From Alphaproteobacteria bacterium (GTDB lineage: Bacteria > Pseudomonadota > Alphaproteobacteria > Methylaequorales > Methylaequoraceae), in contig BOXE01000006.1 of NCBI GenBank assembly GCA_019650635.1, positions 1,176-65,175 on the forward strand: a DNA stretch of 64,000 nucleotides, read 5' to 3'. Below, in pieces: positions 10,178-53,008 of the stretch. Below the pieces are notes generated by a model. It was not told the DNA's origin. It searched no databases and saw only the letters and a program-made list of their open reading frames with translations. The translations under genes and the position numbers were made by a program. Position 1 is the stretch's first letter. Each line of letters starts with the position of its first letter.

Positions 10178-12970
10178 TTTAAAATTCATTAAGACATTTA
10201 CCCGTGTCTTTTTCTTTTTTTTGATAAAAATTTCAACATTTCCCTTCAAATAAGATATGACCTCCCCTTATCTCCACCTTCAGGGCCAAGTCGATAACCA
10301 ATCTGATGTTTTAATACTTAAATTATGTTCTATTACAAGTACAGTATTTCCTTCTCAACAATTTTGAAGAATTTCTAGTAGTTTTCTTACATCGTGGTAT
10401 GAAACCAGTTGTAGGTTCATCAAGAATATACATGGTTTTGCCAGTTGATCTTTTTGAAAGTTCTTTTGCTAATTTTATTCTTTGGGCTTCTCCTCCAGAT
10501 AAAGTTGTAGCTGATTGTCCTATTTTTATATACTCCAAACCAACTTTTTAGTGTTTCTAGTTTTTAGAAATTGAGGGAATAGCTTTAAAAAACTCTAACC
10601 CTTCCTCTACGGTCATATTTAATACATCGGATATATTTTTATTTTTAAATTTTACTTCCAGCGTCTCTCTATTAAATCTTCTTCCTTTACAAAGATCACA
10701 GGGAACAAAGACTCTGCAGAAAATGCATTTCTATCCTTAACATTCCGTCCCTTGGCAATTCTCACATCTACCTCCTTTAACATTAAAAGAAAATCACCAG
10801 GTTTATATCCTCTTGCTCTTGACTCTGGAAGATTTGAATACCATTCTCTTATGAAATTAAAACATGCGGTATATGTTGCAGGGTTAGATCTTGGTGTTCT
10901 TCCAATTGGACTTTGATCTATTTGAATTATTTTATCAAGATTTTCATGTCCTTTAATTTCTTTATGATTGAGGGGTTGTTCACTTGAGTTATTGATTTTT
11001 TTTTGACAAAGACTTAAAAAGGGTTTCTATAATCAATGTTGATTTTCCTCCACCTGATACTCCAGTTATACTGATAAACTTTTTAAGAGGAAACCTAACA
11101 TTTATATTTTTAAGGTTGTTTCCATTTGCACCTTTTATTTCAATATATTTACCACCACTTGACTTTTTATTTTTATTAATTGGAATCATTAATTTTTTTG
11201 ATAAGTATGCTCCTGTTAGACTTTTACTATTTTTAATTATTTCGATAGGTTTACCTTCAGCTATTATATTTCCACCATTTACTCCAGCCCCAACTCCTAC
11301 ATCAATAACATAATCACTTTCAAGAATAGTCTCTTCATCGTGTTCAACAACAATTAGTGAATTTCCAAGATCTCGAAGATTTTAAGTGCTAATAAGTTTT
11401 TTTTTATCTCTTTGGTGAAGACCAATTGAGGTTCGTCAGACATAAAGAACACCGTTAACCCTGATCCTATTTGTGAAGCTAATCTTATCCTCTGACTTTC
11501 CCACCTGATAATGTGTTAGAACTTCTTGACAACTGAAGGTACCTAAACCAACGTTATTAAGAAAGGATAATCTGTCAATTATTTCTTTGATAATTTTGTC
11601 GAAATTTGTTTTTTATAATCAGACAAGTTTTTCTACAAATCAATAAACCATTTTAAAAGTTTCTCAATTGATAACTTTGTAATTTCATATGTTTTATTAT
11701 TTATTTTAACTGCTAGTGCTTCTTTCTTTAATCTCGTTCCACCGCATACTTCACAACGGAATTTACTTAAATATTTATTTAGTTCTTCCTTTGCCACATA
11801 TCTGACAGCACACAGCTTGTTTTCTAAAAATCCAACTTCTCCATCGAATTCTCTGCTGTAACTCCAACCAGTATAATTATTAAAAATATTAATCATTTTA
11901 TTGTCACCAAAAATTACTTTTCTTTTCTTCTCTTCAGTGAGTTCTTCCCATTTGTGATTTGGATTTATCGAGCAATGTCTAGCTACTTCTTTTGTTAATT
12001 CTATATAAAATTGGTTATTCTTATTCCATGGGAGTATAACCCCTTGATTAAGAGACAATGAAGGATCGCCGATTATAAGATCTGGATTAAATTTTTCTTT
12101 GTAACCAAGCCCATCGCACGCTTTACAAGCTCCATTAGGACTGTTAAAAGAAAATAGTCTTGGCTCTATTTCTTCAATAGTAAAACCTGAAATTGGACAT
12201 GCAAATCTTGATGAAAAAATAAAATAATTTTTTTCTCCACTACATCATAAAAATAAATAACTCCATCAGATAAATTTATCGAAGCTTCAATTGATTGCGC
12301 TATTCTTCCTTCAAATTTTCTGTCAACTTCTATCCTATCTACTATGACATCAATCGAATGATTTTTTTTTTTATCAAGCTGAGGAATGTTCGAAGAGTCA
12401 CAGACTTCATCGTCAATCCTGAATCTCATAAATCCTTTTTTAATTAAATCATTAATCTCTTTTTTAAACTCACCTTTTCTATTATTCACTACTGGAGAAA
12501 TTAAATAAAATTTTTTTTTTTTTTCGAACTTATAAAATTCATCTACAATTTCTTGAACACTCATCGATTTAATTTCTTTTCCAGTTTCAGGTGAGTAGGG
12601 AATTCCGATTCTCGCAAATAAAACTCTAAAATAATCGTATATTTCTGTAACTGTTCCTACTGTTGATCTTGGATTCCTCGATGTTGTTTTCTGATCAATT
12701 GATATTGATGGGGATAACCCATCTATTGAATCAACATCAGGCTTTTCCATCATATTTAAAAACTGTCTTGCATAAGAGGATAAACTTTCAACGTAACGTC
12801 TTTGCCCCTCTGCATAAATAGTATCAAAAGCTAAAGAGGATTTTCCAGATCCAGACAAGCCACTTATAACAACAAACTTATTTTTGGGAATATTTACATT
12901 AATATTTTTTAGATTATGTTGTCTTGCCCCGACTATTTTAATAAAGTTTTTGAGTACGCTTTGTTTTCAT
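10178..12970 (-). CDS. uvrA: Excinuclease ABC subunit A (UvrA), with multiple frameshifts as assembled.
   Basis: Four fragments support it. 12166-12858 has [33 protein letters not shown]. 11633-12058 has a zinc finger, CEVCGG. 10989-11189 has [12 protein letters not shown]. 10323-10538 has [15 protein letters not shown]...[10 protein letters not shown]. The N-terminus ...[20 protein letters not shown] lies just upstream of 12858. Confidence 0.9.
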
Positions 12971-26939: not shown

Positions 26940-29243
26940 ATGAAAAATAGTAATGAAAATATAGTCCAAACCCTGGAGAAGCTTAGAAGAACTGAGCTTC
27001 TACTTCAAATATCAAGAAAAATTGCTGGACTTAAATCTTTAGAGGAGATTCTATGGACACTTATAGAATTCGTTACTAATGAGTTAGATGCAGATAGAGG
27101 AACATTATTTTTAAATGATAACGAAACAAATGAACTTTATTCAAGAGTTGCCAAGGGATTTGACTCGCGAAATAAAATTTTAAATAACGTTGGAATAGCA
27201 GGTGCAATTTTTCAAAACAAGTCTGGGGAAGTCATTCATGACGTTTATGCGACTCCCGTTTTAACAAAGAAGTTGATCAGGAAACAGGTTATAAGACAAA
27301 AAATATGATTTGTTGTCCAGTTAAAACTGTTGACGGACTGACAATAGGCGTTATTCAAGTTTTAAATAAAAAAAAAGGTAGATTTACAAAAGATAATCTT
27401 TTCTTTACAGAGTCAATTGCCACCCAAGCTGCTGTATCAATTCAAAATGCACAAAATACAGAACATTTTGAAAAAAAAAGAGCTAAAGAAATGGAGTTTA
27501 TAAGTATAGTTTCTGATGTAACAGCTGAAATCGATTTAGGAGCTTTACTTCAAAGAGTGATGGAAGAGGCAACACGAATGCTCAATGCTGACAGGGCTAC
27601 ATTATTTTTAAATGATGAAAAAACCAATGAATTATTTTCAAGGGTAGCTATGGGGGAAGGCATTGGTGAAATAAGACTTCCTAACACTGCTGGAATTGCA
27701 GGTTCGGTTTTTACTTCTGGTAAATCAATGAATATTCCTTACGCCTATGCTGATTTAAGATTTAATCCTTCATTTGATAAGCAGACAGGGTATTTTACTC
27801 GTTCGATTTTATGTGTACCTGTTGTGAATAAAGAAGGTAAGGTAATTGGTTGCACACAAGTTTTAAATAAGAGTGGTGGCAAATTTACAGATGAAGATGA
27901 ATCTAGGTTAAAGGCATTTACTCAACAAGTTGCAATTGCTCTTGAAAATGCCAAGCTTTTTGAAGATGTATCTAAATCTAGAAAGTATAATGAAAGTATG
28001 CTTTCTAGTATGTCTAACGGAGTTATAACAATTAACAGTGAAGAAGAAATTGTTACTTGTAACAAATCTGGATTAAAAATACTCCGAACTAAAGATTCAG
28101 ACATAATAAAAAAACAATCCAAAGATTTTTTTTCCGGAAATAAAAAATGGATATATGAGAAAATTAAGAGTGTTGGTGAATCAAAAGAACCAGAAATTAT
28201 TGTTGACGCTGAAATAGAGGTTTTCGATTATGAAACAGAAAAAGAGGAAAAAATATCAGTAAATTTGACAATACTCCCACTAATTAATGAAGATAGTGAC
28301 GGTAGAACGGATCAATCAGATAATTTTCTAGGTACTTTATTAATGTTTGAGGACATTTCTTCAGAAAAAAGAATGAAATCAACAATGTCTAGATATATGG
28401 ACCCTGGAATAGCAGATCAATTATTAGAGGATGGATCTGACATCATGGGTGGGCTAGAAACAACCGCTACTTTGTTGTTTTCTGATTTAAGAAGTTTTAC
28501 TACCATAACAGAGTCGTTGGGTGCTCAGGGTACTGTAAAATTATTGAATGAATATTTTGAAATAATGGTTGAATGCATATCAGAGCAGGGGGGGATGTTA
28601 GACAAATTTATTGGAGATGCAATAATGGCTGCATTTGGTCTTCCTATATCACATGAGGATGATGAAGATAGGGGTGTTAAAGCTGGTATCAATATGATCA
28701 AAAGATTATGGGAGTGGAACGAGCAAAGAGAAAAAGATGGAAAAGCCACCTGTTGATATGGGATTAGGATTAAATACGGACAAAATTGTGGCAGGAAATA
28801 TTGGATCACAAAAAAGAATGGATTACACGATGATTGGTGACGGTGTGAATTTAGCAGCACGTTTAGAAAGTGCATGCAAACAATATAGTGCAAGAATATT
28901 AATCAGTGACTATACATTTAAAAAACTAAAAGGTACTTATCGCATTAGGTATATAGATGATGTAGTTGTTAAAGGAAAAAACGAACCTATTGGTGTTCAT
29001 GAAGTTTTAGATTATCACAATGATAAAACTTTTCCGAATTTAATGGATGTGGTCAATCATTTTAATGAAGGTAGGAAACACTATAAAGGTGGAAGTTTTG
29101 AACAAGCTATTTCATCTTTTAATGAATGTCTAAAAGCAAATTCTCAAGATAACTTATCAAAAACATACATTGAGAGATGCAATTTATTAATAGATGAAAA
29201 ACCGACAGATTGGAATGGAGTTTGGGTAATGAAAAGCAAATGA
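26940..29243 (+). CDS. GAF-GAF-PAS class III adenylate cyclase with a TPR-like tail (CyaB1-like architecture). Two single-base frameshifts are present as assembled, near 27250-27300 and near 28740.
   Basis: GAF-A reads ...DADRGTLFLNDNETNELYSRVA...GYKTKNMICCPV...VLNKKKGRFTKDN. GAF-B reads ...NADRATLFLNDEKTNELFSRVA...TGYFTRSILCVPV...VLNKSGGKFTDEDE. A PAS-like segment (MLSSMSNGVITINSEEEIVTCNKSG) follows. The cyclase motifs are LLFSDLRSFTTITE, LDKFIGDAIMAAFG and MDYTMIGDGVNLAARLES. Confidence 0.85.
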
Positions 29244-29962
29244 GGAATTTTCCATTAGACAAAGGTTTGCCAAGTTTAGATTATATAGTTAAAAATTGGC
29301 CTAGAACAAAATGTATTTTAAAAAAATATATTTTGTCAAATCATAAACAACCAGATTTATACTCGATAGCAATAATATGTTTAAAAGAGTTAAAAGTTTT
29401 TAAGTTAAAAGACTATAAATCGATTATTAGAAAATTATCAAAATTGTGTTTAAGAAATACTTGTTTCAATACATATCATGATTCTCATCACTTTAAGTCA
29501 GTTTTGGCAATTTCATGTATATTAGGAAAACAAATAAATTTAAAATATAAAGATAGGCTTTTATTGGTCATAATAGCCCTTACTCACGATATGAATCATC
29601 AGGGAAGGAGAATACTAATGAGTAAGCCCTACTATCAGGAATTAAAGAGTTATGATGGATTAGAAAAAATTTTATTTAAGAAAATCTTTATTTTTAAAGA
29701 ATTGAAGAGGATTAAGAGAATATTTGAGAGTACCTTTTTCCCTGTTAAACCAGAAAATGTAGAAGATGATCTTGAAAAAATAATTTTAGATGCTGATATC
29801 TTATCATCTTTAATGTTTGGTCCTCAGGTTGGAGTGAAACTCGCTGGCAGATTGAAACAAGAAATTAGGTATAATGATGATTCAGAATTACTTTTTTCAA
29901 ATTTTCTTAAACTTTTAGGGGGAAAATGTTTATATCTAGATTATTCAAAAAAATCATGTTAA
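29240..29962 (+). CDS. HD-superfamily protein resembling class I 3',5'-cyclic-nucleotide phosphodiesterase catalytic cores.
   Basis: The ATG at 29240 overlaps the cyclase stop (ATGA). The motifs are ...YHDSHHFKSVL..., then 37 residues later ...ALTHDMNHQG..., then ...IILDADILSS. Compare the PDE patterns YHN..HA.DV, HD..H.G and the metal Asp. Confidence 0.5.
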   Translation: MRNFPLDKGLPSLDYIVKNWPRTKCILKKYILSNHKQPDLYSIAIICLKELKVFKLKDYKSIIRKLSKLCLRNTCFNTYHDSHHFKSVLAISCILGKQINLKYKDRLLLVIIALTHDMNHQGRRILMSKPYYQELKSYDGLEKILFKKIFIFKELKRIKRIFESTFFPVKPENVEDDLEKIILDADILSSLMFGPQVGVKLAGRLKQEIRYNDDSELLFSNFLKLLGGKCLYLDYSKKSC

Positions 29963-30007: not shown

Positions 30008-31348
30008 ATGAAATTGTGGATAAGTAGTAATATGGGAAAATTTGTAATAGGGTGTTTTATTTTTTTGATTGGTGTTGGATCATTTGTATTCGCGCAAGAA
30101 GAAAAAGATGAGGTTATACCTTATAATCTAAAAGCCGCACTTAAGTCAGTTTTGAATAATCATAAAACTATATTGGCAACAAAAAGTGATATAGAGGCTG
30201 CTAAGTTAAGACTAAAACAATCCAGGGGTGGTTATTTTCCTTCGTTAGACGTTACAGCCAATTACGGACATGAAAATATTATAAAATATGGACCAGGCAA
30301 CAACACGCAATTGATGGCAAGGGACGCAACAGCAAAAATAACTCAAACAATTACAGATTTTGGTTTGACTAAATCAACAGTAGAAACTTCAAGATTATCA
30401 TTAAAACAAACACGAGCAACTGAGGCACAAATTAAAAATGACATTTTATTAAGAGCAATTTCAGCATACTTGAGAATTATTCAATCAAGGGAAAGTGTTC
30501 GATACGCAAGACAATCTGTTGCAAACATAAAAAAACAAACTGAATTGGAAGATGCAGCAGTAACTGCAGGAGGTGGACTTACTTCGGATGTTCTCCAAGC
30601 AAAAACTCAATTAGCTGGTGCTCAGGCACGTTTAATTCAGTTTGAAGGCGTATTAGCCACTTCTAGACATGAATTTGAATATGTTTTTAATTCATTTCCA
30701 GATAATTTAAATTCTTTGATCCTCCTTAAATCTGTTTTTGATAAATTACCTAAATCTTTAGAGGAGGCTGAAGAAATAACAATGAAAAATAATCCCTCAC
30801 TGATTGCAGCAAGAATCACAGAGGATATTGGTAAAGAGGCAATAAACACAGCTAAATCTTCTCTTTTTCCAACTGTTAAAGGGATAGTGAGTCATTCAGA
30901 AAAACAAGATTTTGGTGGTGTAGTAGGATTCAAAAGAGAAACCTCTGCAAAGTTAGATTTTGCATATCCATTAAATCTAAGTCTTTCGGAATACGCTGGT
31001 AAAGATGCAGCGGTTGAGTCTTATTTAGCAACATCTACAAGAATAAGAGATCAAGAAGATATGATTAAACAAATGTTAAGAACTACATGGGACGGATTAA
31101 AAACAGCTCAGCAAAATGCTCAATTTCTTACAAATCAGGCAAGAATCTCTGGTGAATTTTTAGAGCTTGCAAGACAAGAAAGACAGGCAGGAAACCGTAC
31201 TTTACTTGACGTTTTAGGGGGTGAAACTGCTCTAATTAATGCTCAAGCAGATGCGATTGCAGCACAAATTGAAGTTCTCATAAATAGTTACACTTTAATG
31301 AGTTTAATGGGGGGACTTTCAATTGAATCAATTGAATTTGTTGAATAA
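30008..31348 (+). CDS. TolC-family outer-membrane efflux/secretion protein (T1SS OMP, locus A).
   Basis: 446-aa ORF with a signal peptide (FIFLIGVGSFVFAQ) and two TolC-type repeat halves (…AAKLRLKQSRGGYFPSLDVTANYG…, …LINAQADAIAAQIEVLINSYTLMSLMG). Confidence 0.85.
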   Translation: MKLWISSNMGKFVIGCFIFLIGVGSFVFAQEEKDEVIPYNLKAALKSVLNNHKTILATKSDIEAAKLRLKQSRGGYFPSLDVTANYGHENIIKYGPGNNTQLMARDATAKITQTITDFGLTKSTVETSRLSLKQTRATEAQIKNDILLRAISAYLRIIQSRESVRYARQSVANIKKQTELEDAAVTAGGGLTSDVLQAKTQLAGAQARLIQFEGVLATSRHEFEYVFNSFPDNLNSLILLKSVFDKLPKSLEEAEEITMKNNPSLIAARITEDIGKEAINTAKSSLFPTVKGIVSHSEKQDFGGVVGFKRETSAKLDFAYPLNLSLSEYAGKDAAVESYLATSTRIRDQEDMIKQMLRTTWDGLKTAQQNAQFLTNQARISGEFLELARQERQAGNRTLLDVLGGETALINAQADAIAAQIEVLINSYTLMSLMGGLSIESIEFVE

Positions 31349-31404
31349 ATTAGGTCTTTTTAACTTTTAAAATAGTAGTATTTCGCCTATAGTTAAAACT
31401 GGAT

Positions 31405-41247: not shown

Positions 41248-42777
41248 TTATTTTTTTTGTTTAAATTGTATATATAGTCCCATTAGGAGTACAGCAAGAA
41301 TTGGACAAATACTTGCCATAGATAGAATACCAAAACCTTCAGTGGCGGATACAGCATTTCCTAGACCCAGACCCATAGCCAGAACAAGTGGTACGGTTAC
41401 CGGGCCGGTTGTGACTCCAGCGCTGTCCCAGGCGACATTAACAAATTCTTCAGTTGAAAAGTAAGTTAAAACAATTGCAAGAAGATAAAGTGGTATTAAA
41501 ACGGTTGCTAAGTCAAAAGCAAATACAATTTTTCCAACACCTAAGGCTATCCCAAATGCAACACCTCCAGCAACGCTATACATTAACATTGACTTTTTGA
41601 AAGCACCATTGGTAAGCTCTTGAACTGTCAAACCAAGAGCATTAAGTGCGGGCTCAGCAAGTGTTGCTCCAAATCCTAAGAGCCAAGCGAAAAGAATTAC
41701 TATAGTTAAACCCAATAATTCGTTATAAATTGGTGATACTTCACTTATTGGGACTTCCATAAAGGCAGCAGGAAGATTGGTTCCAGCTTGCCCACCTATA
41801 GCTCCTAAACCATATGTGAGTCCAATATTGAAGACACACATCCCAACAATGGACAAAGTTAACCCATAAGTTGTTATCATATTGTTAGGAAGTTTAGATC
41901 TAAGGATTACAAAAAGCACAATCATTAAAAATATCACAAGTGGAAGTATTGCTCGAACTCCTCCAATAATTTCAACAAACGGGGTTTGTGACCACTTAGA
42001 AACCTCTCCTATGGTCATATCTGAAGCCATACTAGTCGAAGCAATTATTTCCTCAACTGAGATTGTCTGAGAAACATGTATAGCAAGAATCAGAACAGCG
42101 ATAATTGGAAATAATGAAGCCATTGTAACGACGCCGAAACCAGAAAGAGATGAATCTCCTTTACCAGCTGATGCTGCAATTCCAATACCTAGTGATAGCA
42201 CAAGAGGTACAGTAACTGGTCCAGTTGTAACAGCACCACAATCCCAAGCTAATCCAAGAATAGTTCTTAAATCAGGATTACTCCATACATATGCAGTAAG
42301 AATTATTGTTGGTGCAAGAGCTGCATAAATCATAGGTTTTAGAGACCAACCTTTGACAAACCTTATTGTTCCAATGATGGCTGCTAGTCCAACACCAGCA
42401 CCGACCATTACAACTAAGGTTTCACTTCTATTGTTTAGTATCTCATAAAGATACGGTGCGTCCTGAGGATTTATTGACGAACCAAATGCTTTGAGTGCTC
42501 CAATAGCTGGTTCCGCATAAGTTACCCCCACCCCAAGTATTCCAATAATAATTAAAACAAGAACCATTGGTGCTTTTTTTGGTAATGTATCACCAATTAC
42601 ATTGCCAAATGGCATTAAACCGGTTTTAAGACCTTCCATAAAAATTGCCAGGCCTATTATTACTGCAATCAATCCTAGACAAATTGTTGTTGCTGAAGAG
42701 ATTGGTTGTCTTAAAATTAAAAGTTGAAATAGAAATAAATATGCTGCAAGTGGAACAACAGCTTTAATTTGTTCCAT
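41248..42777 (-). CDS. DUF1538 family polytopic membrane protein (internally duplicated).
   Basis: 509-aa ORF whose two halves each carry ...AWD(C/S)(G/A)(A/G)VTTGPVTVPLVL(S/A)(L/M)G(I/L)G. Confidence 0.7.
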   Translation of the reverse strand: MEQIKAVVPLAAYLFLFQLLILRQPISSATTICLGLIAVIIGLAIFMEGLKTGLMPFGNVIGDTLPKKAPMVLVLIIIGILGVGVTYAEPAIGALKAFGSSINPQDAPYLYEILNNRSETLVVMVGAGVGLAAIIGTIRFVKGWSLKPMIYAALAPTIILTAYVWSNPDLRTILGLAWDCGAVTTGPVTVPLVLSLGIGIAASAGKGDSSLSGFGVVTMASLFPIIAVLILAIHVSQTISVEEIIASTSMASDMTIGEVSKWSQTPFVEIIGGVRAILPLVIFLMIVLFVILRSKLPNNMITTYGLTLSIVGMCVFNIGLTYGLGAIGGQAGTNLPAAFMEVPISEVSPIYNELLGLTIVILFAWLLGFGATLAEPALNALGLTVQELTNGAFKKSMLMYSVAGGVAFGIALGVGKIVFAFDLATVLIPLYLLAIVLTYFSTEEFVNVAWDSAGVTTGPVTVPLVLAMGLGLGNAVSATEGFGILSMASICPILAVLLMGLYIQFKQKK

Positions 42778-43895: not shown

Positions 43896-46266
43896 TTATT
43901 TAGAAGTTGCCACAAAAACACCATCCCAATCTTTTGGGGGAGGATACTTTTTATATTCATTAATTCGTTCCGTCATCATTTCATAGTAATCTTTCATTAA
44001 ATTTTTACAAAGTGTTTTTGCCTGAGTCATTTCCTCGATAGCATCTTTCCAATTTTGATTAAAATAGTGATTTAATACATTTTTGTGTTTTTTTTCAAGA
44101 TTTTTGAAATCAACACTATTTTTAAAACTTGGATCACCGAGCAAACAAAAAATTGATACAGCTTCTTTTTTTCCTTTTACTGCTAGCATATCAAGTTGAA
44201 GCGTAGCAAAAGTATCTTTAACAGCATCGTTTGTTTCTTGTCCAATAACTGTTTTAACTCCATAACCTTTTGATTGACCTTCAAGACGTGATGCTAAATT
44301 GACTGCGTCTCCAAGTACTGAATAGTCAAATCTTTGGTCTGATCCCATGTTTCCAACAACACAACCTCCAGTATTTAGTCCAATTCCAATTTTTAATTCC
44401 AAAAAATCTTTATTTTCTGACTTCGCTTCTTGCTCTCTGATATCGTTAAGTTCTTTCAGTGCTTTATGCATACTTAATGCTGCTTCACAAGAAACTTGCT
44501 CATGTTTATCAACATCTATAGGTGCATTCCAAAAAGCCATAATACAATCTCCCATATATTTATCGATTGTTCCGTTTTTATTTATGATTTCATTAGTAAG
44601 AGGAGTTAAAAATCTGTTTATAAGTTTTGTTAGGCCTTGAGGATCTGATTTAAAAGCTTCTGAAATTGTTGTAAATCCTCTTACATCACAAAAAAGAAAT
44701 GTCATTTTTTTTGTTTCTCCACCCAAAACTAATTTATCAGGATCTTCAGCTAATTGCTCTACTAAAGCAGGGGATAGATATTGAGAAAATGCACCTCTTA
44801 TTTGTTTTTTCTCATTGGCATCTCGTAAGTAGTTTGCAAAGGTGTTACTAAAATAAATTACAAAAGTTGTTACACCTGCAAAGGTTGGATCAAATAAAGT
44901 TTTATGCTCAGTAAATAACCTTACACTAATATAAAATGCAGAACTTATTATGGTTACAAGTAATGAAATATTTACAATTGGACCAAACCTTAATGCAGAC
45001 ACTGTGATAAATAATGCAAGCAAAATTGTAAAGAGTGCTTCATAAAATTTCATATTTGCACCAGATTTCAAAAAAGGTGATCCTGAAATTTTAACTTTGT
45101 TTTTTTCAATTATTGCTTCTTCTTCACTTAAACCTTTTTTTAATGCATCTTTATAAACTTTTTCAGAATTTTTTGTAGATGTATAATAAAGAATTGCTGA
45201 AATGACTGTATCAATGAGATTTGCATGAATTTCAACACCTGGCATTCTTTCATCGACTGGAGTGGGTCTAATATCCTTTAATCCAGTGGCCGATGTGCCT
45301 AATATACCAAGTTTTCCCTGTAATCTATCTTTGCCAACCCTTCCTTTAATTATATCCACTGCACTTACATAATACCTTGATTTACCTTCTTAACTTTTCC
45401 AGCATCTGAATCACCATAATAAATCCACACTCTACCATTCTCATCAGTGGAATGCAGCATTTCCAATAGCTTTAGTTTGAATTATTATTTCTTAATTCCC
45501 GTCAAACCTGTCCTAGTGGCAATACTATTTCTTGAAACGCAACCCTTATCATATCAAGCCCAAGAGTTGGTCTGATTTCACCTGCAACATTTGATATTAA
45601 AGGTACTCTTCTAATAATACCATCTGGTTCCTGTGCAACTGAAACTGTACCAGACCCAGAAGCAGCTTTTTCAAACTCTGTCACATTAGCAAGCAATCCA
45701 GGATAAGATATCAACCATTCCTTTGGATTTTTACCTTTGCCAACAAAAACTTTTACAGATGAATCGTTTATATCATTTCTGTTTGCATCACCTTCAACAT
45801 CCAAGCCAGAGTGCCCAATTACTACAGGAAAGTCATTCATAGCTTCCGTGGCTAAAAACTCATTAGAAGGAAGTTCACTTAATAGCTTGGCAATTTTTGG
45901 GTTTCTTTTTTCTAAATCTTGAGAAATTAAATCAGGTGAAGTTCTGTCTTTTTCTGCAAAGAGAACATCTAGACCTAAAACCAGCATGCCTGACTCTTTA
46001 GATTTTTTAAAAAGATCGGCAAGTACAGTTCTTGGCCATGGCCATTGACCGATTTCTCTGAGAGATTTTTCGTCAATATCTACTATTACGGAATAAGTTT
46101 GCCCATCTGTAGACCTTGGGAATTTTTTTTGAAGAACATCAAAATATTTTAGTCTTAGAACTTCTACTATTTCAGGATCAGCTATACGAATCAAACCAAA
46201 AAGAATAGCCATTACTAATGAAGCAATAGTAACAATAAGTCTAAAACTTAGCTTTAATTTTATCAT
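43896..46266 (-). CDS. CHASE2-domain membrane adenylate cyclase (class III). The frame is broken in 45,360-45,500 as assembled.
   Basis: 45502-46266 holds the N-terminal TM segment and CHASE2-like periplasmic domain (…VIVDIDEKSLREIGQWPWPR…). Across the gap it reads ...TDENGRVWIYY.... 43896-45359 contains …LGILGTSATGLKDIRPTPVDERMPGVEIHANLIDT…, TM segments, and the cyclase motifs FLFCDVRGFTTISE, IDKYMGDCIMAFW and FDYSVLGDAVNLASRLEG. Confidence 0.8.
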
Positions 46267-47987
46267 GGTTCTGCAAAACTATTACCAAGAGTTCTTATAA
46301 GTGGGTAAATAAAATACGTAATTAATCTTCTTTGCCCAACTCTAAACTTTCCTGAAACTTTCATTCCTGGCATTAAATTAAATCCTGGAGGAATATCTTT
46401 TAACTCATTTTCTGTTATTTGAGCCCTAGCCCTATAAAAATTTCCAGGTTTTCCATCGACATCTTTATCAATTGTGTCAGCAGAAACATAAATAAGCTTT
46501 CCTTTTAATTCACCATGTTTTTGTGCTGGAAGGGCATTAAGTTGAATTTTAACAGATGTATCCGGAATTAGTTTGCTAATATCAGAAGGATCAACATCAA
46601 AAACAGTTAATAACTCCACACCTGTTGGTACCAATGTAACAACACTTTTACCTTGTGTTATAACTGCTCCAGGATATAGAGAATGAAGGTCTAGAATCAT
46701 TCCGTCAGACGGCGCTCTTACCACGACATCAGTTTGTTGTCTTTCAAGTTTTTTAACATCCTCTTGTAGAGACATTCTTTGATCCTCTAATCCAACAAGC
46801 TCATCGTTTATTCCTCCAAAAAATTGGCTGTTATATTCTTTTCTATTAGATTTTAATTCGCTTAGTTTATTGCTAGTTTTTGTAAATTCTTTTTCTAAAG
46901 ACAACCTTTTGTTTTTTTCAGCTAAAACTTGTGACTCTGCTACAAGATCAAGTTCAAATAACTCCAACTTTGAATCTTCCAGCTGCTTTTGTATATCAAG
47001 TTGTTCTTTGATAAACTTTAAATCGTCTTCTGTGGAACCTATTTGCTGATCTAATGAAGCAATCTTTGCTAAATATTGGTCTTTTTTATCTTTAAAGATT
47101 CGGCTCTGTCTTTCGTCATTTGGATTTGCAACCGAGACACTATTCCTTAACAATGACTGCTTTTTTAGTCTATCAATTTTTGAATTTACAACTGAAAGCT
47201 GATAATCAAGTTTCATTTTATCAGCTCTTTGAAGTGTAGCATCGAAAGTTACGAGTGGGTCTCCTTGATTAACACTCTCACCTTTTTTTACAAGTATTTC
47301 TTTGACAACAGAATTATAGTTTGATTGCACCTCTACATTTGGGACAACGGTGGTAATCTTTCCAGAAGCAGAAATTGTAGTATCAATTTCGGAAATAGTG
47401 CCCCAAGTAATTAAAAATAAAACTAGGAAACCAAATGAATAAACTGACATTTTTACTGAACGTGGTACCTGCTTTGTTTTAATTCTATCAATGTCGTCAT
47501 CAAATTCATCTAATAACTCACTCATCATTTTTTTCTTTGATCTATTTTCTTTTTCCTCCTCAGTTAAAACTTCTTCTTGATCTTTGTTATTTTCATTTTC
47601 ATTTCCAGATTCAAAAGCATCCACAGATAATTTTTCGTTTGCATTTCTGGCATAGCTTGCAAGCTGCTGCATCATATTAAAAGCTGTTTGTGGAGAGTTT
47701 TTGAGATAACCTAATAAAGCATTTTGATCAATTTCTTTTACCGTTGTCTCAACTGTTGCTCTTGCCATTGCACTTCTTGGTTGTTTGTCAATTAATGCCA
47801 TTTCTCCAAATAACGCCCCTTTTTCAAGTATTGATAAAGTGACGTATTCGTCACCGTTGAATTTGCATACCTCTATTTTTCCTTTTACTATTTGATAGGC
47901 ATAGTCACCAACTTCACCTTCTCTAAAGAGTACATCACCAGCAGCTAAATTTCTTACAGCGGGTTGAATATTTTTTTTTTCGGCCAT
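46263..47987 (-). CDS. HlyD-family T1SS membrane fusion protein fused to an N-terminal cyclic-nucleotide-binding domain, locus B.
   Basis: 574-aa intact ORF. Residues ~10-115 read ...GDVLFREGEVGDYAYQIVKGKIEVCKF...LEKGALFGEMALIDKQPRSAMARA. A TM segment (VYSFGFLVLFLITWGTI), a lipoyl/barrel and coiled-coil region, and ...MPGMKVSGKFRVGQRRLITYFIYP follow. Confidence 0.85.
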   Translation of the reverse strand: MAEKKNIQPAVRNLAAGDVLFREGEVGDYAYQIVKGKIEVCKFNGDEYVTLSILEKGALFGEMALIDKQPRSAMARATVETTVKEIDQNALLGYLKNSPQTAFNMMQQLASYARNANEKLSVDAFESGNENENNKDQEEVLTEEEKENRSKKKMMSELLDEFDDDIDRIKTKQVPRSVKMSVYSFGFLVLFLITWGTISEIDTTISASGKITTVVPNVEVQSNYNSVVKEILVKKGESVNQGDPLVTFDATLQRADKMKLDYQLSVVNSKIDRLKKQSLLRNSVSVANPNDERQSRIFKDKKDQYLAKIASLDQQIGSTEDDLKFIKEQLDIQKQLEDSKLELFELDLVAESQVLAEKNKRLSLEKEFTKTSNKLSELKSNRKEYNSQFFGGINDELVGLEDQRMSLQEDVKKLERQQTDVVVRAPSDGMILDLHSLYPGAVITQGKSVVTLVPTGVELLTVFDVDPSDISKLIPDTSVKIQLNALPAQKHGELKGKLIYVSADTIDKDVDGKPGNFYRARAQITENELKDIPPGFNLMPGMKVSGKFRVGQRRLITYFIYPLIRTLGNSFAEP

Positions 47988-47993
47988 TTTTTG

Positions 47994-50165
47994 TTACCCG
48001 GCCTTCTTTAAAGATTTAATTTTGTTTTCAACACCTAAAATAGACATTTGCTTATTATACGTTTGACCAAAATAGCCTGAAATTTGTCTTAATTCTTCAA
48101 AAGAACCTTGTTGAGATATTTTTCCTTTTTCAAGCACAAAGATTTTATTACATAGTCGAAGGTGCCAAACTCTGTTTGACACTATAATTATTGTTCTACC
48201 AAGAGCAATATCTGATAGTGCATCGTATAATTTTATTTCACTGTCAACGTCAAAACCTGTGAAAGCATCATCAAGTATCATAATACGAGGGTTTCTAATA
48301 AGTGCTCTAGCAATTGCTAGTTTTTGTCTTAAGCCAGTTGCAAGATTTGTAGCATTTTCTTCTAAGAATGTTTCATATCCATCAGGATAGGACTCAATTT
48401 CTTCATGTGCGAAAACTTTTTTGGCAGCCCAAGTTATTCTGTCCATAGAGGAATTTGGCATTGCACTAGCTATTGTTTCCCTTATTGTTCCAGGAAAAAA
48501 ATAACTATCCGTTCCAACTAATGAAACTTGTGATCTTACATGACTCAGGTCCAATAAACGTAGATCTATATTATCAAGAGCTACGATTCCAGCTTGCGGT
48601 CTATATAAACCTTGAATTAGTTTTGCAATGGTACTTTTCCCACAGCCACTTTTACCAGTAATACCAATTATCTGTCTTGGATTAATTTCAATATCAATAT
48701 CATTTAATACTTTTGTGTTGTCGTCGTACCCAAACTCAACATTTTTAAAACTAACCTGTCCCATTAATTGAGGTTTTTGGCCTCTGACAGTTGTTTCGGA
48801 GTTTGCATCCACTATTCCTGATATGATCTGAAGGGATTGAACTAATTTTGTTATTTCTGTTTTTAGCGTAACTAGATCAATTATTGGCTTTGAAACTCTG
48901 CCGGCAAGCATATTAAAACCTACTAAAATTCCAGCTGAAAGAGATCCAGAAAATACAAGATGCACCCCGACAAAAATAACCATTGCAGTCATAAGTTGAT
49001 TTATAGTTGATGAAATGTTGTTTAAAACTGCTGACTTTTTTTGCATTTCTTCATTTGCAATAATATAATTTGCTTCCAAATCTCTCCACTGATCTTTCAA
49101 ATTAGGTTCAAGAGCAAGTCCCTTTACATTCTCAATTCCGTTTACAGCAACAGAAATAAATTCTTGTCGTTTTGATTCAGCCTTACTTAAACCAGCGAGA
49201 GAATCTCTTTGTTTTTTTGAGTAAAACATTGATGCTAAAGCTCCTAAAATACTGAATGAAAACACAACAATAAATAGTAATGGACTATAAAAAAATAGAA
49301 TCGGAACAAAAACAAGTAAACTAATTGAGTCTAGTGCTGTTGAGAAAACTTTTTGAGTCAGAAGGCTTTTGATCTGAGATATTTGTCCCGTGAATCTCAA
49401 AAAGGTAGCTGATTCTTTATGAAACCTTTGCATTGGTAAAGCAATTAATTTTTCAAAAACTTTAACTGAAAGTTTGGCTTCAACTTTTTGTGAGAAAAAA
49501 TCAAGAAGATATGATTTTAAATACCCAAGTATTCCATTAAATACATACGCAACAACTACACCTGAAGTTATAACATATAAAGTTGAATAAGCTTCATAGT
49601 TTACAACCTTATCCAAAACCAACATCATGAAAACAGCTGGTATGACTGCAAAAATATTTAAAATTAAAGCTACGATTACAACCTGAACCATAACAGATTT
49701 GTTCCTAAATGACTCACCAATTAACCATCCAATTTTTAATTCGCTGTCTTCTTCAAATTTTTTAAGCTTGGCTTTCAAAAGAATAACTTCTCCATCCCAT
49801 CCTTTTTTTAATTCTTTTAAATTTATTTGTTGGGGTTTGGGACTGGTAACACCAGTATCAAGGCATAAAACTGACTTGTCATCGTCTTTTTCACCTTGAA
49901 TGACTCTTAAAGCTATTATGTACCTTCCATTTTTAAGCCTTAAAATTTGTTGTTTTTTTGATAAGAGCTTTATTAGTTCCTTTTCGCTGATTTTGGTTGC
50001 TTTTGCTTTTAAATCAAAGGATTGAGCTAAGTCACACATTTCAGAGGTTCTAAGCTCTCTATCTTCAATTTGAAATCTTTCTGGGATATCATTCGGACCA
50101 ATATGAACACCTAGTTGTCTTGCAACTAGAATAATTGATTTTTGAGAACCGCGCATCGCTTCCAT
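47994..50165 (-). CDS. T1SS ABC exporter of HlyB type with an N-terminal C39-like (non-catalytic) domain, locus B. The NBD catalytic motifs are non-canonical.
   Basis: 723-aa intact ORF. The N-terminal ~130 aa align to the HlyB CLD pattern, without the Cys of the C39 'CG..C' motif. Walker A is GKSGCGKST. The Q-loop position reads LVGTDSY, the signature LATGL, Walker B IMILDDA and the H-loop IIVSNRV. Confidence 0.85.
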   Translation of the reverse strand: MEAMRGSQKSIILVARQLGVHIGPNDIPERFQIEDRELRTSEMCDLAQSFDLKAKATKISEKELIKLLSKKQQILRLKNGRYIIALRVIQGEKDDDKSVLCLDTGVTSPKPQQINLKELKKGWDGEVILLKAKLKKFEEDSELKIGWLIGESFRNKSVMVQVVIVALILNIFAVIPAVFMMLVLDKVVNYEAYSTLYVITSGVVVAYVFNGILGYLKSYLLDFFSQKVEAKLSVKVFEKLIALPMQRFHKESATFLRFTGQISQIKSLLTQKVFSTALDSISLLVFVPILFFYSPLLFIVVFSFSILGALASMFYSKKQRDSLAGLSKAESKRQEFISVAVNGIENVKGLALEPNLKDQWRDLEANYIIANEEMQKKSAVLNNISSTINQLMTAMVIFVGVHLVFSGSLSAGILVGFNMLAGRVSKPIIDLVTLKTEITKLVQSLQIISGIVDANSETTVRGQKPQLMGQVSFKNVEFGYDDNTKVLNDIDIEINPRQIIGITGKSGCGKSTIAKLIQGLYRPQAGIVALDNIDLRLLDLSHVRSQVSLVGTDSYFFPGTIRETIASAMPNSSMDRITWAAKKVFAHEEIESYPDGYETFLEENATNLATGLRQKLAIARALIRNPRIMILDDAFTGFDVDSEIKLYDALSDIALGRTIIIVSNRVWHLRLCNKIFVLEKGKISQQGSFEELRQISGYFGQTYNKQMSILGVENKIKSLKKAG

Positions 50166-50255: not shown

Positions 50256-51360
50256 TTAGACTACCTCACCACCGTCATTTGGATCGTCTGGAGGTGGAGG
50301 CATATCTGCGGGCATATCACCTGGCATTGGCCCAGGATCTCCTGGAGGAGGTCCTTCTGGACCTTGATGTGCTCCTGCATCATCCATGTGTGATTCATGT
50401 CAGCCTATCTCCAGGAGGAGGTTTTCTCCGGAGGAGGCCCCCTTCACCAGCACCAAAACCGTGGATCGTTAGGATCGTGTTGTGGCATATCACCTGGAGG
50501 AGGTCCGCCAGCGGCCCACCTTCAAAATAAGGGGTCCCCTTCACCACCAGGAGGTGGCGGAGGCATTCCGTCTCCATCCATATCCATGCCTGGAGGCGGT
50601 CCGTCTGGTCCCATGCTGGTCCCTGGTCCACCCCCATATCACCTGGAGGCGGTCCGTCTGGTCCCATACCACCTGGTCCCATGTCACCCGGAGGCGGTCC
50701 GTCTGGTCCCATTCCACCTGGCCCCATATCACCTGGAGGCGGTCCGTCTGGTCCCATACCACCTGGTCCCATGTCACCTGGAGGCGGTCCGTCTGGTCCC
50801 ATAGCACCTGGCCCCATGTCACCTGGAGGCGGTCCGTCTGGTCCCATTCCACCTGGCCCCATATCACCTGGAGGCGGTCCGTCTGGTCCTTGCCCAGCCA
50901 TATCACCTGGAGGAGGTCCGCCTTCACCTGGAGGCGGTCCTTCTGGTCCTGGCCCTGCCATATCACCTGGAGCCCCTGGTAAATCACCCGGAGGCGGAGG
51001 TGGGGGTGCATCAGCACCTGGTCCCATGTCTGGAACAGGAGGCATATCTGGACCAAAATCAGAGCATGGTCCGTCAGGACATCCATCTAAATGAGTATCC
51101 ATAACCTCAGAAACAGCGTCAAAAGCGTCTGCTGCACTTGCACCAGGGTTTTCAGCCATAAAATCGTTGTATGCACCTTGAGCGGTGTCAGCCATGTTCA
51201 TCATAACTTCCGGCGGCATTCCACCATCAGTCATAACGTCCATTGCTGCAGTCATACATTCGTCAAAACTACCTCCACCCTGCATCACGTCAAATGCAGC
51301 TGAACCTGCGGCATCACCGAGATCCATTAGTTCAGGAGGCAGGTTAGTAAATTCTGCCAT
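50256..51360 (-). CDS. Met/Asp/Pro/Gly-rich repeat protein with no FecR or RTX domain. The C-terminal third is frame-broken as assembled.
   Basis: The ORF 50395-51360 has a Met-rich N-terminus (MAEFTNLPPELMDLGD...DECMTAAMDVMTDGGMPPEVMMNMADTAQ) and then at least 6 copies of GPDGPPPGDMGPGGM. After the frame changes, the sequence continues ...GPDGPPPGMDMDGDGMPPPPPGGEGDP... and ends ...PPPPDDPNDGGEVV* with a stop at 50256-50258. Confidence 0.65.
50590..50890 (-). repeat. Tandem 45-nt coding repeat of about 6-7 units, with two alternating variants that give a roughly 90-nt super-period.
   Basis: The plus-strand unit is ggaggcggtccgtctggtcccat(a/t)(c/g)cacctgg(t/c)cccat(g/a)tcacct, repeated head to tail. 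Confidence 0.85.
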
Positions 51361-51477
51361 AATAAATTCCTTTATTAAATTGTAAGATTAAATTGTGTTA
51401 ATACTTTTAAAAAGTCGATACAGTCTAATTTTAAGCTTATTTTATTTTTAAATTTTAATCAAGCTTTAAATTAATTT

Positions 51478-52803
51478 TTATTTTTCAATTGTTTCAAAAT
51501 TTAGAATTCCGCATAATTTTAATAATTCGAAGGATGAAATAATTAGTTGATATTGTGCGTTTACTAAATTTGATTCAGAATCTGTTAGTTCTTTTTGCGC
51601 ATCTAGAATTTCTAATGTTGTTCTGGTACCAACACTTGCTTCTTTTGTTACTCCCTCAACTGCCATTAAATTTGACTCAACTGAAACCTCAAGAGAATTT
51701 ATACTTGATTTTGAACTTTGTATTTTCTTCCATGCCGAATTAATTTGAAATTGTAAGTCAAGTTTTTTGTCTCAATTGATTTAATAACAGTAAGAGCAGA
51801 ATCTTTTGATTTTTCTAAATTCAAAAAATTATGTCCTTTGTTAAATAATGGAACTGTAACATTGGCAGTTACTGAGTATGAATCTGTTCTTTCAACTGTT
51901 CTTGAGGAGTCAAGTGATTTTCCTACTGAACCAGACAAAGAAAATTCCGGTGCAAAGTTTAAATTATTTTTTCTTACATCCAATTTTGAGTTCATAAGTT
52001 GTAATTTTAATTTTCTATAATCTGGGTTCTTTTCTAAACCTGTTTTTATTGAATCTTCCAGAGATTTTGGAAGTTTTGGTATTTGACCAAATTTTAACCA
52101 ATCTTTTGGATTGGCGTCGACAATTTGCGCATTATTAGAATCAAACCATTTAATATCTGGAGCTCTACCAACAATTGTTTTAAAATCAGAAATTGAAATT
52201 TCTAAGTTATTTTCAGCTTCTATTCTCTTTGAAGTAGCACCTGCTAATCTTGCTTTAGCTTGAAAAACGTCAGTTTTAGTTACGTCTTTAAATTCGAATC
52301 GTTTTTCAGCAGCATTTAGTTTTTTTTCAAGAGTATCTTCGTTCCTTTTTGAAACATCTAAAAGAAAATAATCCTTTAAAACAGTATAATAAGCTCTACT
52401 AGCTTTAAATAAAACATCTTGGACTGTGGCGTAAAAGGTTAACTTTGCGATGTTCAAGTTATTTTTAGCTTGCTTAAAAATTTATAGCTTTTGTGTAACC
52501 TAAAGGTTGAGATAAATCTACGTCGAAAGTGGTTGGGTTGAAAGCGCTATCATTAATTCGAGATGTATCAGGATTGCTTTTTGAAATTTTCCTTCCTTGT
52601 GAAGCTGAAAAGTCAAGGGATGGTAGAAAATCTGTTTTGGAAATTTTTAAATCTTTTTCTGAAATTTTTAATTCTGTTTTACTTTTTTCAATGTCCGGAT
52701 AAAACTTATATGCATCTTTCAAAACATCGGAGAGTTCTTCAGAAATTGAAATAATAGGAAAAAATATCGATGCTAAGATAACCAGATTTAATTTGGATTT
52801 CAC
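51478..52803 (-). CDS. TolC-family outer-membrane protein, locus B. Two frame breaks are present as assembled.
   Basis: The fragments 52474-52803 (signal peptide MKSKLNLVILASIFFPIISIS, ...FLPSLDFSASQG), 51699-52457 and 51478-51666 (…ILDAQKELTDSESNLVNAQYQLIISSFELLKLCG) are collinear with TolC. Confidence 0.8.

Positions 52804-52931: not shown

Positions 52932-53008
<77 letters not shown>

Follow-up and report, generated by a model that had tools for sequence, protein, structure and literature searches.

Type 1 secretion systems (T1SS) are taught as ATP-driven machines, and the locus described here raises the question of whether their ATP-binding cassette (ABC) protein can be kept in service after the residues that hydrolyse ATP have been replaced. 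The window, by which is meant the whole stretch of 64,000 nucleotides (64 kb) analysed from contig BOXE01000006.1 of the alphaproteobacterial assembly GCA_019650635.1, encodes a HlyB-type ABC protein, ABC1, for which an original prediction made by reading the sequence had claimed that every catalytic motif of the nucleotide-binding domain (NBD) except Walker A was replaced. The substitutions in ABC1, their conservation and the architecture of the secretion module to which the gene belongs are described below; beyond that earlier claim, the degeneration of the NBD is tied, as a family-wide trait, to a HlyD adaptor that carries a cyclic nucleotide monophosphate (cNMP)-binding domain.

Motifs of the ABC1 nucleotide-binding domain

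47994 to 50165, minus strand: ABC1, HlyB-type T1SS ABC protein, an open reading frame (ORF) of 723 aa identified by Pfam, NCBIfam and HMMER alignment to HlyB; C39-like domain (aa 1-140), type-IV exporter transmembrane domain (TMD, aa ~150-455), degenerate NBD (aa ~456-723)
48630 to 48656, minus strand: Walker A, GKSGCGKST, intact (aa 504-512; HMMER alignment)
48510 to 48512, minus strand: Q-loop position, Thr552 for Gln (HMMER alignment)
48330 to 48344, minus strand: signature position, LATGL for LSGGQ (aa 608-612; HMMER alignment)
48267 to 48269, minus strand: Asp633 for the catalytic Glu after Walker B (HMMER alignment)
48174 to 48176, minus strand: H-loop position, Asn664 for His (HMMER alignment)

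ABC1 is readily recognised as an ABC exporter. The Pfam family ABC_tran (PF00005) matches residues 487-635 with 94.4 bits against a cut-off of 25, covering profile positions 1-136 of 137, and ABC_membrane matches residues 163-422 with 113.9 bits, with a weak match to Peptidase_C39 (PF03412; 26 bits against a cut-off of 22) over residues 13-132. Among PDB entries, HlyB of E. coli (7SGR) matched best (E=5.7e-100, query residues 13-693 in a full-length HMMER alignment), with an identity in the 34% range over the full length. The HlyB subfamily TIGR01846, aligned over residues 11-707, is the top-scoring NCBIfam family; even so, the score of 488.3 bits lies below the curated cut-off of 725.55, and ABC1 falls outside the subfamily as defined. 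Because no Cys occurs before residue 44, the N-terminal domain is regarded as C39-like, as in HlyB, and not as a peptidase. This assignment is based on Pfam and on the full-length alignment, in which the domain aligns with its HlyB counterpart; when searched alone against the PDB it gave a weak match (E=0.21).

Formal alignment to HlyB placed non-canonical residues at the Q-loop, signature, catalytic-base and H-loop positions, in agreement with what had been read by eye, and the recomputed coordinates of the last three were identical. In the Q-loop, 'vslvgtdsy' of ABC1 stands against 'vgvvlqdnv' of HlyB, so that Gln becomes Thr552 (the predicted LVGTDSY); the signature region reads 'nlatglrqklaiar' against 'glsggqrqriaiar'; at the end of Walker B, 'imilddaftgfd' against 'ilifdeatsald' puts Asp633 in the place of the catalytic Glu631; and in the H-loop 'iiivsnrv' against 'iiiiahrl' puts Asn664 in the place of the linchpin His662. 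Walker A is intact, as had been stated (GKSGCGKST against GRSGSGKST of HlyB). The wording 'every motif except Walker A' was slightly too broad, however: it holds for these four motifs, whereas the Mg-binding Asp632 of Walker B (IMILD632), the A-loop Tyr480 (EFGY480) and the D-loop Asp639 are all kept. Out of six motifs scored, ABC1 has thus lost the signature, the Q-loop Gln, the catalytic Glu and the H-loop His, and has retained Walker A and Walker B. Judged from the alignment, the ATP-binding side of the domain is intact, and the side predicted to serve hydrolysis and clamping of the sandwich dimer is replaced. The combination of Glu to Asp, a replaced H-loop His, an altered signature and a conserved Walker A is that of the degenerate sites of known exporters, which bind ATP and hardly hydrolyse it (PMC7756269).

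Conservation and selection in the ABC1 lineage

A search among 5.8 billion proteins returned 120 relatives of ABC1 with 80-99% identity, whose sources, all marine metagenomes and single-cell genomes, bear the labels 'uncultured Alphaproteobacteria' or 'Rickettsiales bacterium'. They form one cluster, beyond which identity fell to 40% when 1.84 billion 50%-identity representatives were searched exhaustively with HMMER. Free variation at the catalytic positions, which would have spoken against the original prediction, was not seen in these relatives: in the 121 sequences of the lineage the DD at the end of Walker B and the SN of the H-loop are invariant, and Walker A is identical in 117 of the 121, the other 4 having GRSGCGKST. 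The signature follows the pattern [LIMV][SA]TG[LMF] in all 120 relatives, and the Q-loop position is the sole catalytic site that varies (S/A/T/D). Purifying selection on the NBD is strong. The ratio of nonsynonymous to synonymous substitution (dN/dS, calculated by the Nei-Gojobori method) was 0.005-0.08 in comparison with ten orthologous genes from genome assemblies, no higher than that of the TMD, which bears out the earlier opinion that the ORF is not in decay. In addition, ABC1 and the downstream HlyD gene show 0 indels against relatives despite a DNA identity of just 92-95%, and the single 1-nt gap of this region lies within the 6-nt spacer that separates both genes.

Erosion of Gly, Gln and His codons by AT bias was also considered as a cause of the losses and was rejected, since fragments of UvrA in the same window retain LSGGE and ILDEPT, and also because the codons of Glu (GAA) and Asp (GAT) are equally AT-rich.

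Degenerate ABC proteins linked to cNMP-binding adaptors

The gene that follows ABC1 encodes an unusual adaptor:

46263 to 47987, minus strand: HlyD-family adaptor of 574 aa (Pfam cNMP_binding, E=1.2e-19, and HlyD_3), composed in order of a cytoplasmic cNMP-binding domain (aa 12-97; cassette FGEMALIDKQPRSAMARA), an acidic linker, one transmembrane helix and a periplasmic HlyD body

It scores 219.9 against the NCBIfam family TIGR01843, above the cut-off of 208.65. Such fusions accompany degenerate ABC proteins far beyond the ABC1 lineage. The nearest outgroups are degenerate as well: P0121 lacks the Q-loop Gln and the signature, and P0122, P0123 and P0128 have lost Gln, signature, Glu and His, with Walker A missing too in P0122 and P0123. 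In all four of these distant relatives (33-40% identity) the next gene encodes a cNMP_binding-HlyD fusion. In an alignment of five cNMP-HlyDs from 5 lineages the phosphate-binding cassette FGEMA.I....RSA.ARA is invariant. The canonical relatives P0132 and P0133 have a next-gene HlyD without this domain. The converse, that a cNMP-binding HlyD always implies a dead NBD, was rejected, as the closest fully canonical relative, P0124 (locus L034), also has one.

A metagenome scan with the alignment of the five cNMP-HlyDs recovered 80 loci, and the ABC genes directly upstream of the cNMP-HlyD genes gave 40 distinct motif sets. Walker A is the only motif left in 21 of the 40, and 6 keep none, Walker A included; Glu and His persist without Gln or signature in 9, and the rest comprise sets that lack the signature alone (2), that keep only Walker A and His (1) or that are canonical (1). 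For comparison, in a set of 224 NBDs (149 best 50%-identity representatives) 116 were fully canonical and 1 had Walker A alone. The motif pattern of ABC1 is far from chance, and NBD degeneration is linked to the cNMP-binding HlyD across the family.

In a neighbour-joining tree built from TMD and NBD, one clade holds all degenerate proteins linked to a cNMP-HlyD; every 'odd' representative that was included falls in it, and the canonical P0124 groups among canonical proteins. ABC1 has the features that define the clade: a HlyB-like ABC gene with a cNMP_binding-HlyD fusion as the next gene, an NBD that has lost the signature and the Q-loop Gln, and an upstream gene for an acidic substrate free of Lys and Arg. 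Structural NBD residues are conserved throughout the clade (G469, G526, R544, F557, R620, P626, D632 and G681), and the nucleotide-contact residues are for the most part lost, the retained share being 8% for Gln, 8% for the first Gly of the signature, 50% for Glu, 33% for His and 38% for the Tyr of the A-loop; the TMD has its own clade-specific conserved positions. Class III nucleotide cyclase genes, often with a CHASE2 domain, were seen next to the module in at least five separate lineages; they may lie to either side of it and on either strand.

No Walker A is recognisable in four clade lineages (L099-L104, L030, L028 and L107), which read YSQTDTASS, ADNPKTASA, GSSGTEKAA and GTPDCGSEL; their ORFs are intact, and cNMP-HlyD and substrate genes are present.

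Selection was estimated in the lineage with YSQTDTASS, where omega is 0.08-0.10 overall, with 0.17-0.18 in the NBD against 0.04-0.06 in the N-terminal domain and TMD. Since purifying selection persists there without a P-loop, ATP cannot, at least in that lineage, be the fuel at the ABC protein. The finding made on ABC1 generalises to a clade of cNMP-linked type 1 secretion modules with degenerate ABC proteins; in the open-access literature neither a cNMP-binding HlyD nor a T1SS ABC protein lacking a consensus site was found described, HetC being the nearest case.

The ABC1 operon and its presumed substrates

Besides ABC1 and its adaptor, the operon comprises:

43896 to 46266, minus strand: class III nucleotide cyclase with a CHASE2 sensor, its start overlapping the HlyD stop by 4 nt
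50256 to 51360, minus strand: presumed substrate, an acidic Pro/Gly/Met-rich repeat protein (from the composition of the reconstruction)
~51463 to 52803, minus strand: TolC-family (OEP) outer-membrane protein (Pfam), with two private frameshifts in the window

These five genes lie on the minus strand in the order TolC, Pro-rich protein, ABC1, HlyD, cyclase, an arrangement that is conserved in nine related genomes and intact in nearly all nine. The ABC protein, the HlyD-family adaptor and the TolC-family protein of a T1SS are accordingly encoded together.

Several of the genes are broken in the window. Five 1-nt deletions, all private, interrupt the cyclase gene (45389-45530); of the 9 relatives compared, 8 have it as one unbroken ORF of 792-800 aa, and in L009 it is split; TolC, with private indels at 51768 and 52476, is intact in relatives as an ORF of 442-479 aa; and the substrate gene is read in three frames, owing to private indels. 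Single-base indels of this kind, private with respect to close relatives, break UvrA, ABC2 (the second T1SS ABC gene, described below), the cyclase, the Pro-rich gene and TolC, and spare ABC1 and HlyD; UvrA, at 10326-12966, is in pieces. Because the frameshifts are private to the window sequence and hit UvrA too, they are attributed to sequence quality and not to pseudogenisation. The window sequence is of low quality in places, and the gene breaks should not be taken for biology.

Reconstructed across the frame breaks, the presumed substrate has ~344 aa with 25% Pro, 23% Gly, 59 Asp plus Glu, 0 Lys and 1 Arg, contains five to six 45-nt repeats, and ends in ...PPDDPNDGGEVV. Upstream of the ABC gene, all lineages encode such an acidic repeat protein: Asp and Glu together make up 13-35%, Lys and Arg are practically absent, Pro amounts to 12-34% in most, and the short repeats are Gly-rich and often Met-rich. 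The tail is conserved as ...DD.x[DE][VI][VG], for example PPDDPNDGGEVV, PPPPDDPTDDVV and DDDANDIV, and may serve secretion; T1SS signals of the protease and lipase group end, at the very C-terminus, in an acidic residue with hydrophobic ones after it. Besides the window gene at 50256-51360 (minus strand), members of this substrate family lie at L002:8897-9907, L026:7216-7863, L028:5942-7924, L044:1616-2623 and L099:3114-4745, and have a conserved, Ala-rich N-terminal segment; at L048:1000-3085 two acidic Pro-rich substrate genes stand in tandem upstream of the ABC gene. Some substrates contain 18-24% Met, with MPPEAMGGM-type repeats similar to Cu(I)-binding Met motifs, and the module of L026 adjoins genes for an HMA protein, a Cu-type P-type ATPase and a cupredoxin. 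A metal-binding role of these proteins would be a guess.

Directly upstream of the operon, whose second gene encodes a protein with 25% proline, lies a tRNA-Pro(UGG) gene (52932-53008, plus strand); rRNA genes were not present in the 64-kb window. Between both secretion clusters, at 40573-42777 on the minus strand, lies a gene for a DUF1538 membrane protein, which has 509 aa in the window and 565 aa in the majority of cluster members; a gene for a P-II-like protein and an ORF of 99 aa come next.

The second secretion cluster and the search for a partner

A second T1SS is encoded on the opposite strand:

30008 to 31348, plus strand: TolC2, part of the cluster stretch 30008 to 37654
31405 to 37654, plus strand: two substrate genes with FecR-domain, Pro-Gly-repeat and RTX segments, with several frame breaks
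37707 to 39295, plus strand: ABC2, PrtD-like T1SS ABC protein without a C39-like domain and with a degenerate NBD; private 1-nt deletion near 38548
39300 to 40571, plus strand: HlyD2, adaptor without a cNMP-binding domain

The similarity of its NBD to that of ABC1, which the original prediction had mentioned, was confirmed by reading the motifs in ABC2 and its relatives: Walker A (GANGSGKTT) is intact, the Q-loop Gln is Glu, LSGGQ is YSKGI, DE is DD and the H-loop His is Glu. In seven relatives ABC2 is a single ORF, likewise with DD, xSKGI and Glu, and two more distant lineages retain the Q-loop Gln.

The substrates of this cluster combine a FecR domain at the N-terminus with long GPGGPGDF-type repeats and, at the C-terminus, RTX repeats. 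The GPGGPGDF-type repeats lift the local GC content up to 54% in a genome of 25-30% GC; the genes are read in several frames, and the repeat region may be mis-assembled. Directly upstream of the cluster is a GAF-GAF-PAS class III cyclase gene (26940-29962, plus strand; frame break at 28737-28756), followed by an ORF of 250 aa with an HD-like 'HDMNHQGR' motif and no Pfam match. Nucleotide cyclases thus adjoin both secretion clusters of the window.

A canonical partner ABC protein encoded nearby was rejected by a hidden Markov model scan of all ORFs of at least 50 aa in the 64 kb: no canonical exporter NBD was present, and ABC1, ABC2 and the UvrA fragments were the only matches. The arrangement of two-gene half-transporters of the TM287/288 type is likewise absent, as each operon has one ABC gene and none of those in the 64 kb is canonical.

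Proposed mechanism and alternative explanations

With moderate confidence, ABC1 can be seen as a functional homodimer that binds ATP, is impaired in hydrolysis and belongs to a cNMP-gated secretion module. The parts of this proposal differ in strength. That ABC1 is hydrolysis-impaired and yet functional is, as far as its residues allow a prediction, highly probable. As only one ABC gene is present, it would form a homodimer with two identical degenerate sites. Binding of Mg-ATP is probably preserved, as Walker A, the Tyr of the A-loop and the Asp of Walker B are present without variation in this lineage; hydrolysis is predicted, by analogy with characterised sites, to be very slow or none, since ABC1 has lost the catalytic base and the linchpin His along with the Q-loop Gln and the Ser-Gly-Gly of the signature. 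The E631Q and H662A variants of HlyB are ATPase-dead, and Asp in place of Glu typifies the non-hydrolytic sites of NBD1 of MRP1, TAP1 and TmrB. In TmrB the Asp of the degenerate site is D500 (PMC8277102).

In the mechanism proposed here, the ABC1 NBD would be a nucleotide-occupied structural or regulatory module and no motor, and control would have shifted to the adaptor. The sensor cyclase would produce cAMP (or cGMP), and the cytoplasmic cNMP-binding domain of HlyD, located beside the NBD and the C39-like domain, would open or assemble the conduit; substrate-dependent assembly of the Hly system requires this cytoplasmic N-terminal region of its HlyD. Gating by a cNMP through HlyD is, in our opinion, evenly balanced between true and false. 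The substrate would be an unfolded polyanion, whose movement might be driven most plausibly by the membrane potential together with extracellular trapping, and not by rapid ATP turnover. An inside-negative potential would push out a chain with ~60 negative and no positive charges, so that ATP hydrolysis could, speculatively, be dispensable; a non-ATP source of energy for export is put forward tentatively, as a possibility that we consider less probable than its opposite. The distribution of motifs in the family suggests an order of loss in which the signature and Q-loop Gln went first, then Glu and His, and the P-loop last, always beside a cNMP-binding adaptor. The trend suggests a second messenger as the successor of the ATP cycle in controlling the conduit.

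Several observations weigh against this proposal. Asp633 and Asn664 are strictly invariant, and Asp can act as a weak general base, so that ABC1 could still catalyse. In the lineage of the window the NBD is constrained like the TMD and keeps all ATP-binding residues, which fits a working nucleotide cycle no less than a scaffold. P0124 (L034) is canonical although linked to a cNMP-HlyD, which means that the adaptor domain does not require a dead NBD. The cNMP ligand is putative here, and the related domain of HetC binds ppGpp in vitro (PMC10986499). The electrophoretic drive is a conjecture from the composition of the substrate only, the oligomeric state of ABC1 is assumed, and the search for a canonical partner spans just the 64-kb window.

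The alternative that survives best, though we consider it unlikely, is that ABC1 is a conventional ATP-driven pump in which Asp633 would serve as the general base and Asn664 would stabilise the transition state, a slow ATPase being sufficient for a disordered substrate that is easily translocated. Such an enzyme would explain why Walker A, the A-loop Tyr and the Walker B and D-loop Asp residues are intact and invariant, and why Asp633 and Asn664 do not drift in an NBD with a dN/dS as low as that of the TMD; sister lineages with Glu and His but without Gln or signature also suggest that residual catalysis is tolerated or used. It is difficult to reconcile, however, with the simultaneous loss of the signature Ser-Gly-Gly, which clamps the gamma-phosphate across the dimer, and of the Q-loop Gln, which positions Mg and water and couples the NBD to the TMD; the four losses together match characterised non-hydrolytic sites. 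Moreover, several sister lineages are P-loop-free yet under selection, which argues that export in the family is independent of ATP hydrolysis at this protein.

It is improbable that ABC1 is the degenerate half of a heterodimer, or part of a mixed (ABC2)3-type assembly, whose canonical partner is encoded elsewhere. All characterised exporters with this substitution pattern are heterodimeric according to a review (PMC7756269), in line with the earlier statement that such sites normally occupy one heterodimer half, and the partner search covered a 64-kb window of the genome. The genes of known heterodimeric exporters are adjacent, whereas one ABC gene per operon is found here: ABC1 is the single operon ABC gene in the window and in the nine related genomes, and in four distant lineages a single ABC gene was found as well, within flanks that reached, depending on the length of the contig, up to 8 kb per side. 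ABC2, the other exporter NBD in the 64 kb, is itself degenerate, so an ABC1-ABC2 pair would have no consensus site.

Less probable still is a repurposing of the ABC/HlyD/TolC scaffold as a cNMP-linked signalling or regulatory device that transports no protein, in the manner of SUR. The family-wide loss of catalytic residues and the tight translational coupling to the sensor cyclase through the 4-nt overlap would fit such a device, but TolC and a substrate-like gene with a T1SS-type acidic and hydrophobic tail accompany the module in every lineage, and the TMD, with clade-specific conserved residues, is the most conserved part. Finally, a decaying pseudogene or sequencing error, to which the number of private 1-nt indels in neighbouring genes (TolC, cyclase, substrate, ABC2, UvrA) might point, is as good as ruled out for ABC1 by identical substitutions in 120 independent sequences, the low dN/dS and the absence of indels in ABC1 and HlyD.

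To our knowledge, ABC exporters without any consensus ATP site are essentially unknown, save channels and regulators such as CFTR and SUR. In its widest form, namely a widespread and undescribed T1SS class with a pseudo-ATPase NBD, gated by cNMP and powered by the membrane potential for the export of disordered polyanions free of Lys and Arg, the idea would amount to a ligand-gated, protein-conducting ABC channel independent of ATP hydrolysis, and is doubtful. Purifying selection on ABC1 is very strong, and the marine alphaproteobacterial lineage to which it belongs is abundant and AT-rich, with hundreds of copies in metagenomes; the clade, with its graded NBD decay, offers a natural series on the contribution of NBD and ATP to type 1 secretion. 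The module also indicates how a second messenger could gate protein export post-translationally, and defines a new class of presumed secreted proteins of ocean bacteria, free of Lys and Arg and rich in Pro, Met and Asp.

Comparison with known systems

ABC1 most resembles HlyB of E. coli (PDB 7SGR/8DCK). Both have a C39-like domain without the catalytic Cys, a six-helix TMD and an NBD; in both the gene adjoins that of a HlyD-family adaptor, the partner is a TolC protein, and the substrate, presumed in the case of ABC1, has an acidic and hydrophobic C-terminal tail. HlyB differs in its canonical Q550, LSGGQ, E631 and H662 and in its requirement for ATP hydrolysis, where ABC1 has Thr, LATGL, Asp and Asn. 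The HlyD of the Hly system has a short cytoplasmic N-terminus in place of the cNMP-binding domain of the ABC1 operon, and its substrate is an RTX protein, unlike the presumed substrate of ABC1. ABC2 corresponds to PrtD (Aquifex/Dickeya; PDB 5L22), a T1SS ABC protein without an N-terminal domain, and adjoins a plain HlyD, a TolC and RTX-repeat substrates; it departs from PrtD in having YSKGI as its signature, DD where the catalytic base is expected and Glu in the H-loop.

The substitutions of ABC1 have their counterparts in TM287/288, TmrAB, BmrCD and PatAB and in the eukaryotic TAP1/2, MRP1, CFTR and SUR, where Glu is replaced by Asp, the H-loop His is replaced, the signature is altered and Walker A is kept. 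In heterodimeric exporters, however, a second NBD, usually encoded by an adjacent gene or fused, provides one consensus site, whereas ABC1 alone would give two degenerate sites.

Control by a cyclic nucleotide-type domain is known from HetC of Nostoc PCC 7120, a peptidase-containing ABC transporter (PCAT) from the superfamily of ABC1 whose activity depends on a cytoplasmic N-terminal cNMP-type domain (PMC10986499). In HetC the ABC protein itself carries that domain as a fusion and has an active C39 peptidase and an essential catalytic Glu970; its gene has no adaptor gene close by, and ppGpp is the ligand found in vitro (PMC10986499). ABC1 does not conform to this type, as its cNMP domain is on HlyD, the catalytic Cys is missing and Glu is replaced by Asp.

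For transport through an exporter-type TMD without ATP hydrolysis, the peptide transporters SbmA and BacA offer a precedent, having the fold of type-IV ABC exporters without NBDs and being driven by the proton-motive force. SbmA differs from ABC1 in being an importer that is not part of a tripartite system and in having lost the NBD wholly, whereas that of ABC1 is well conserved.

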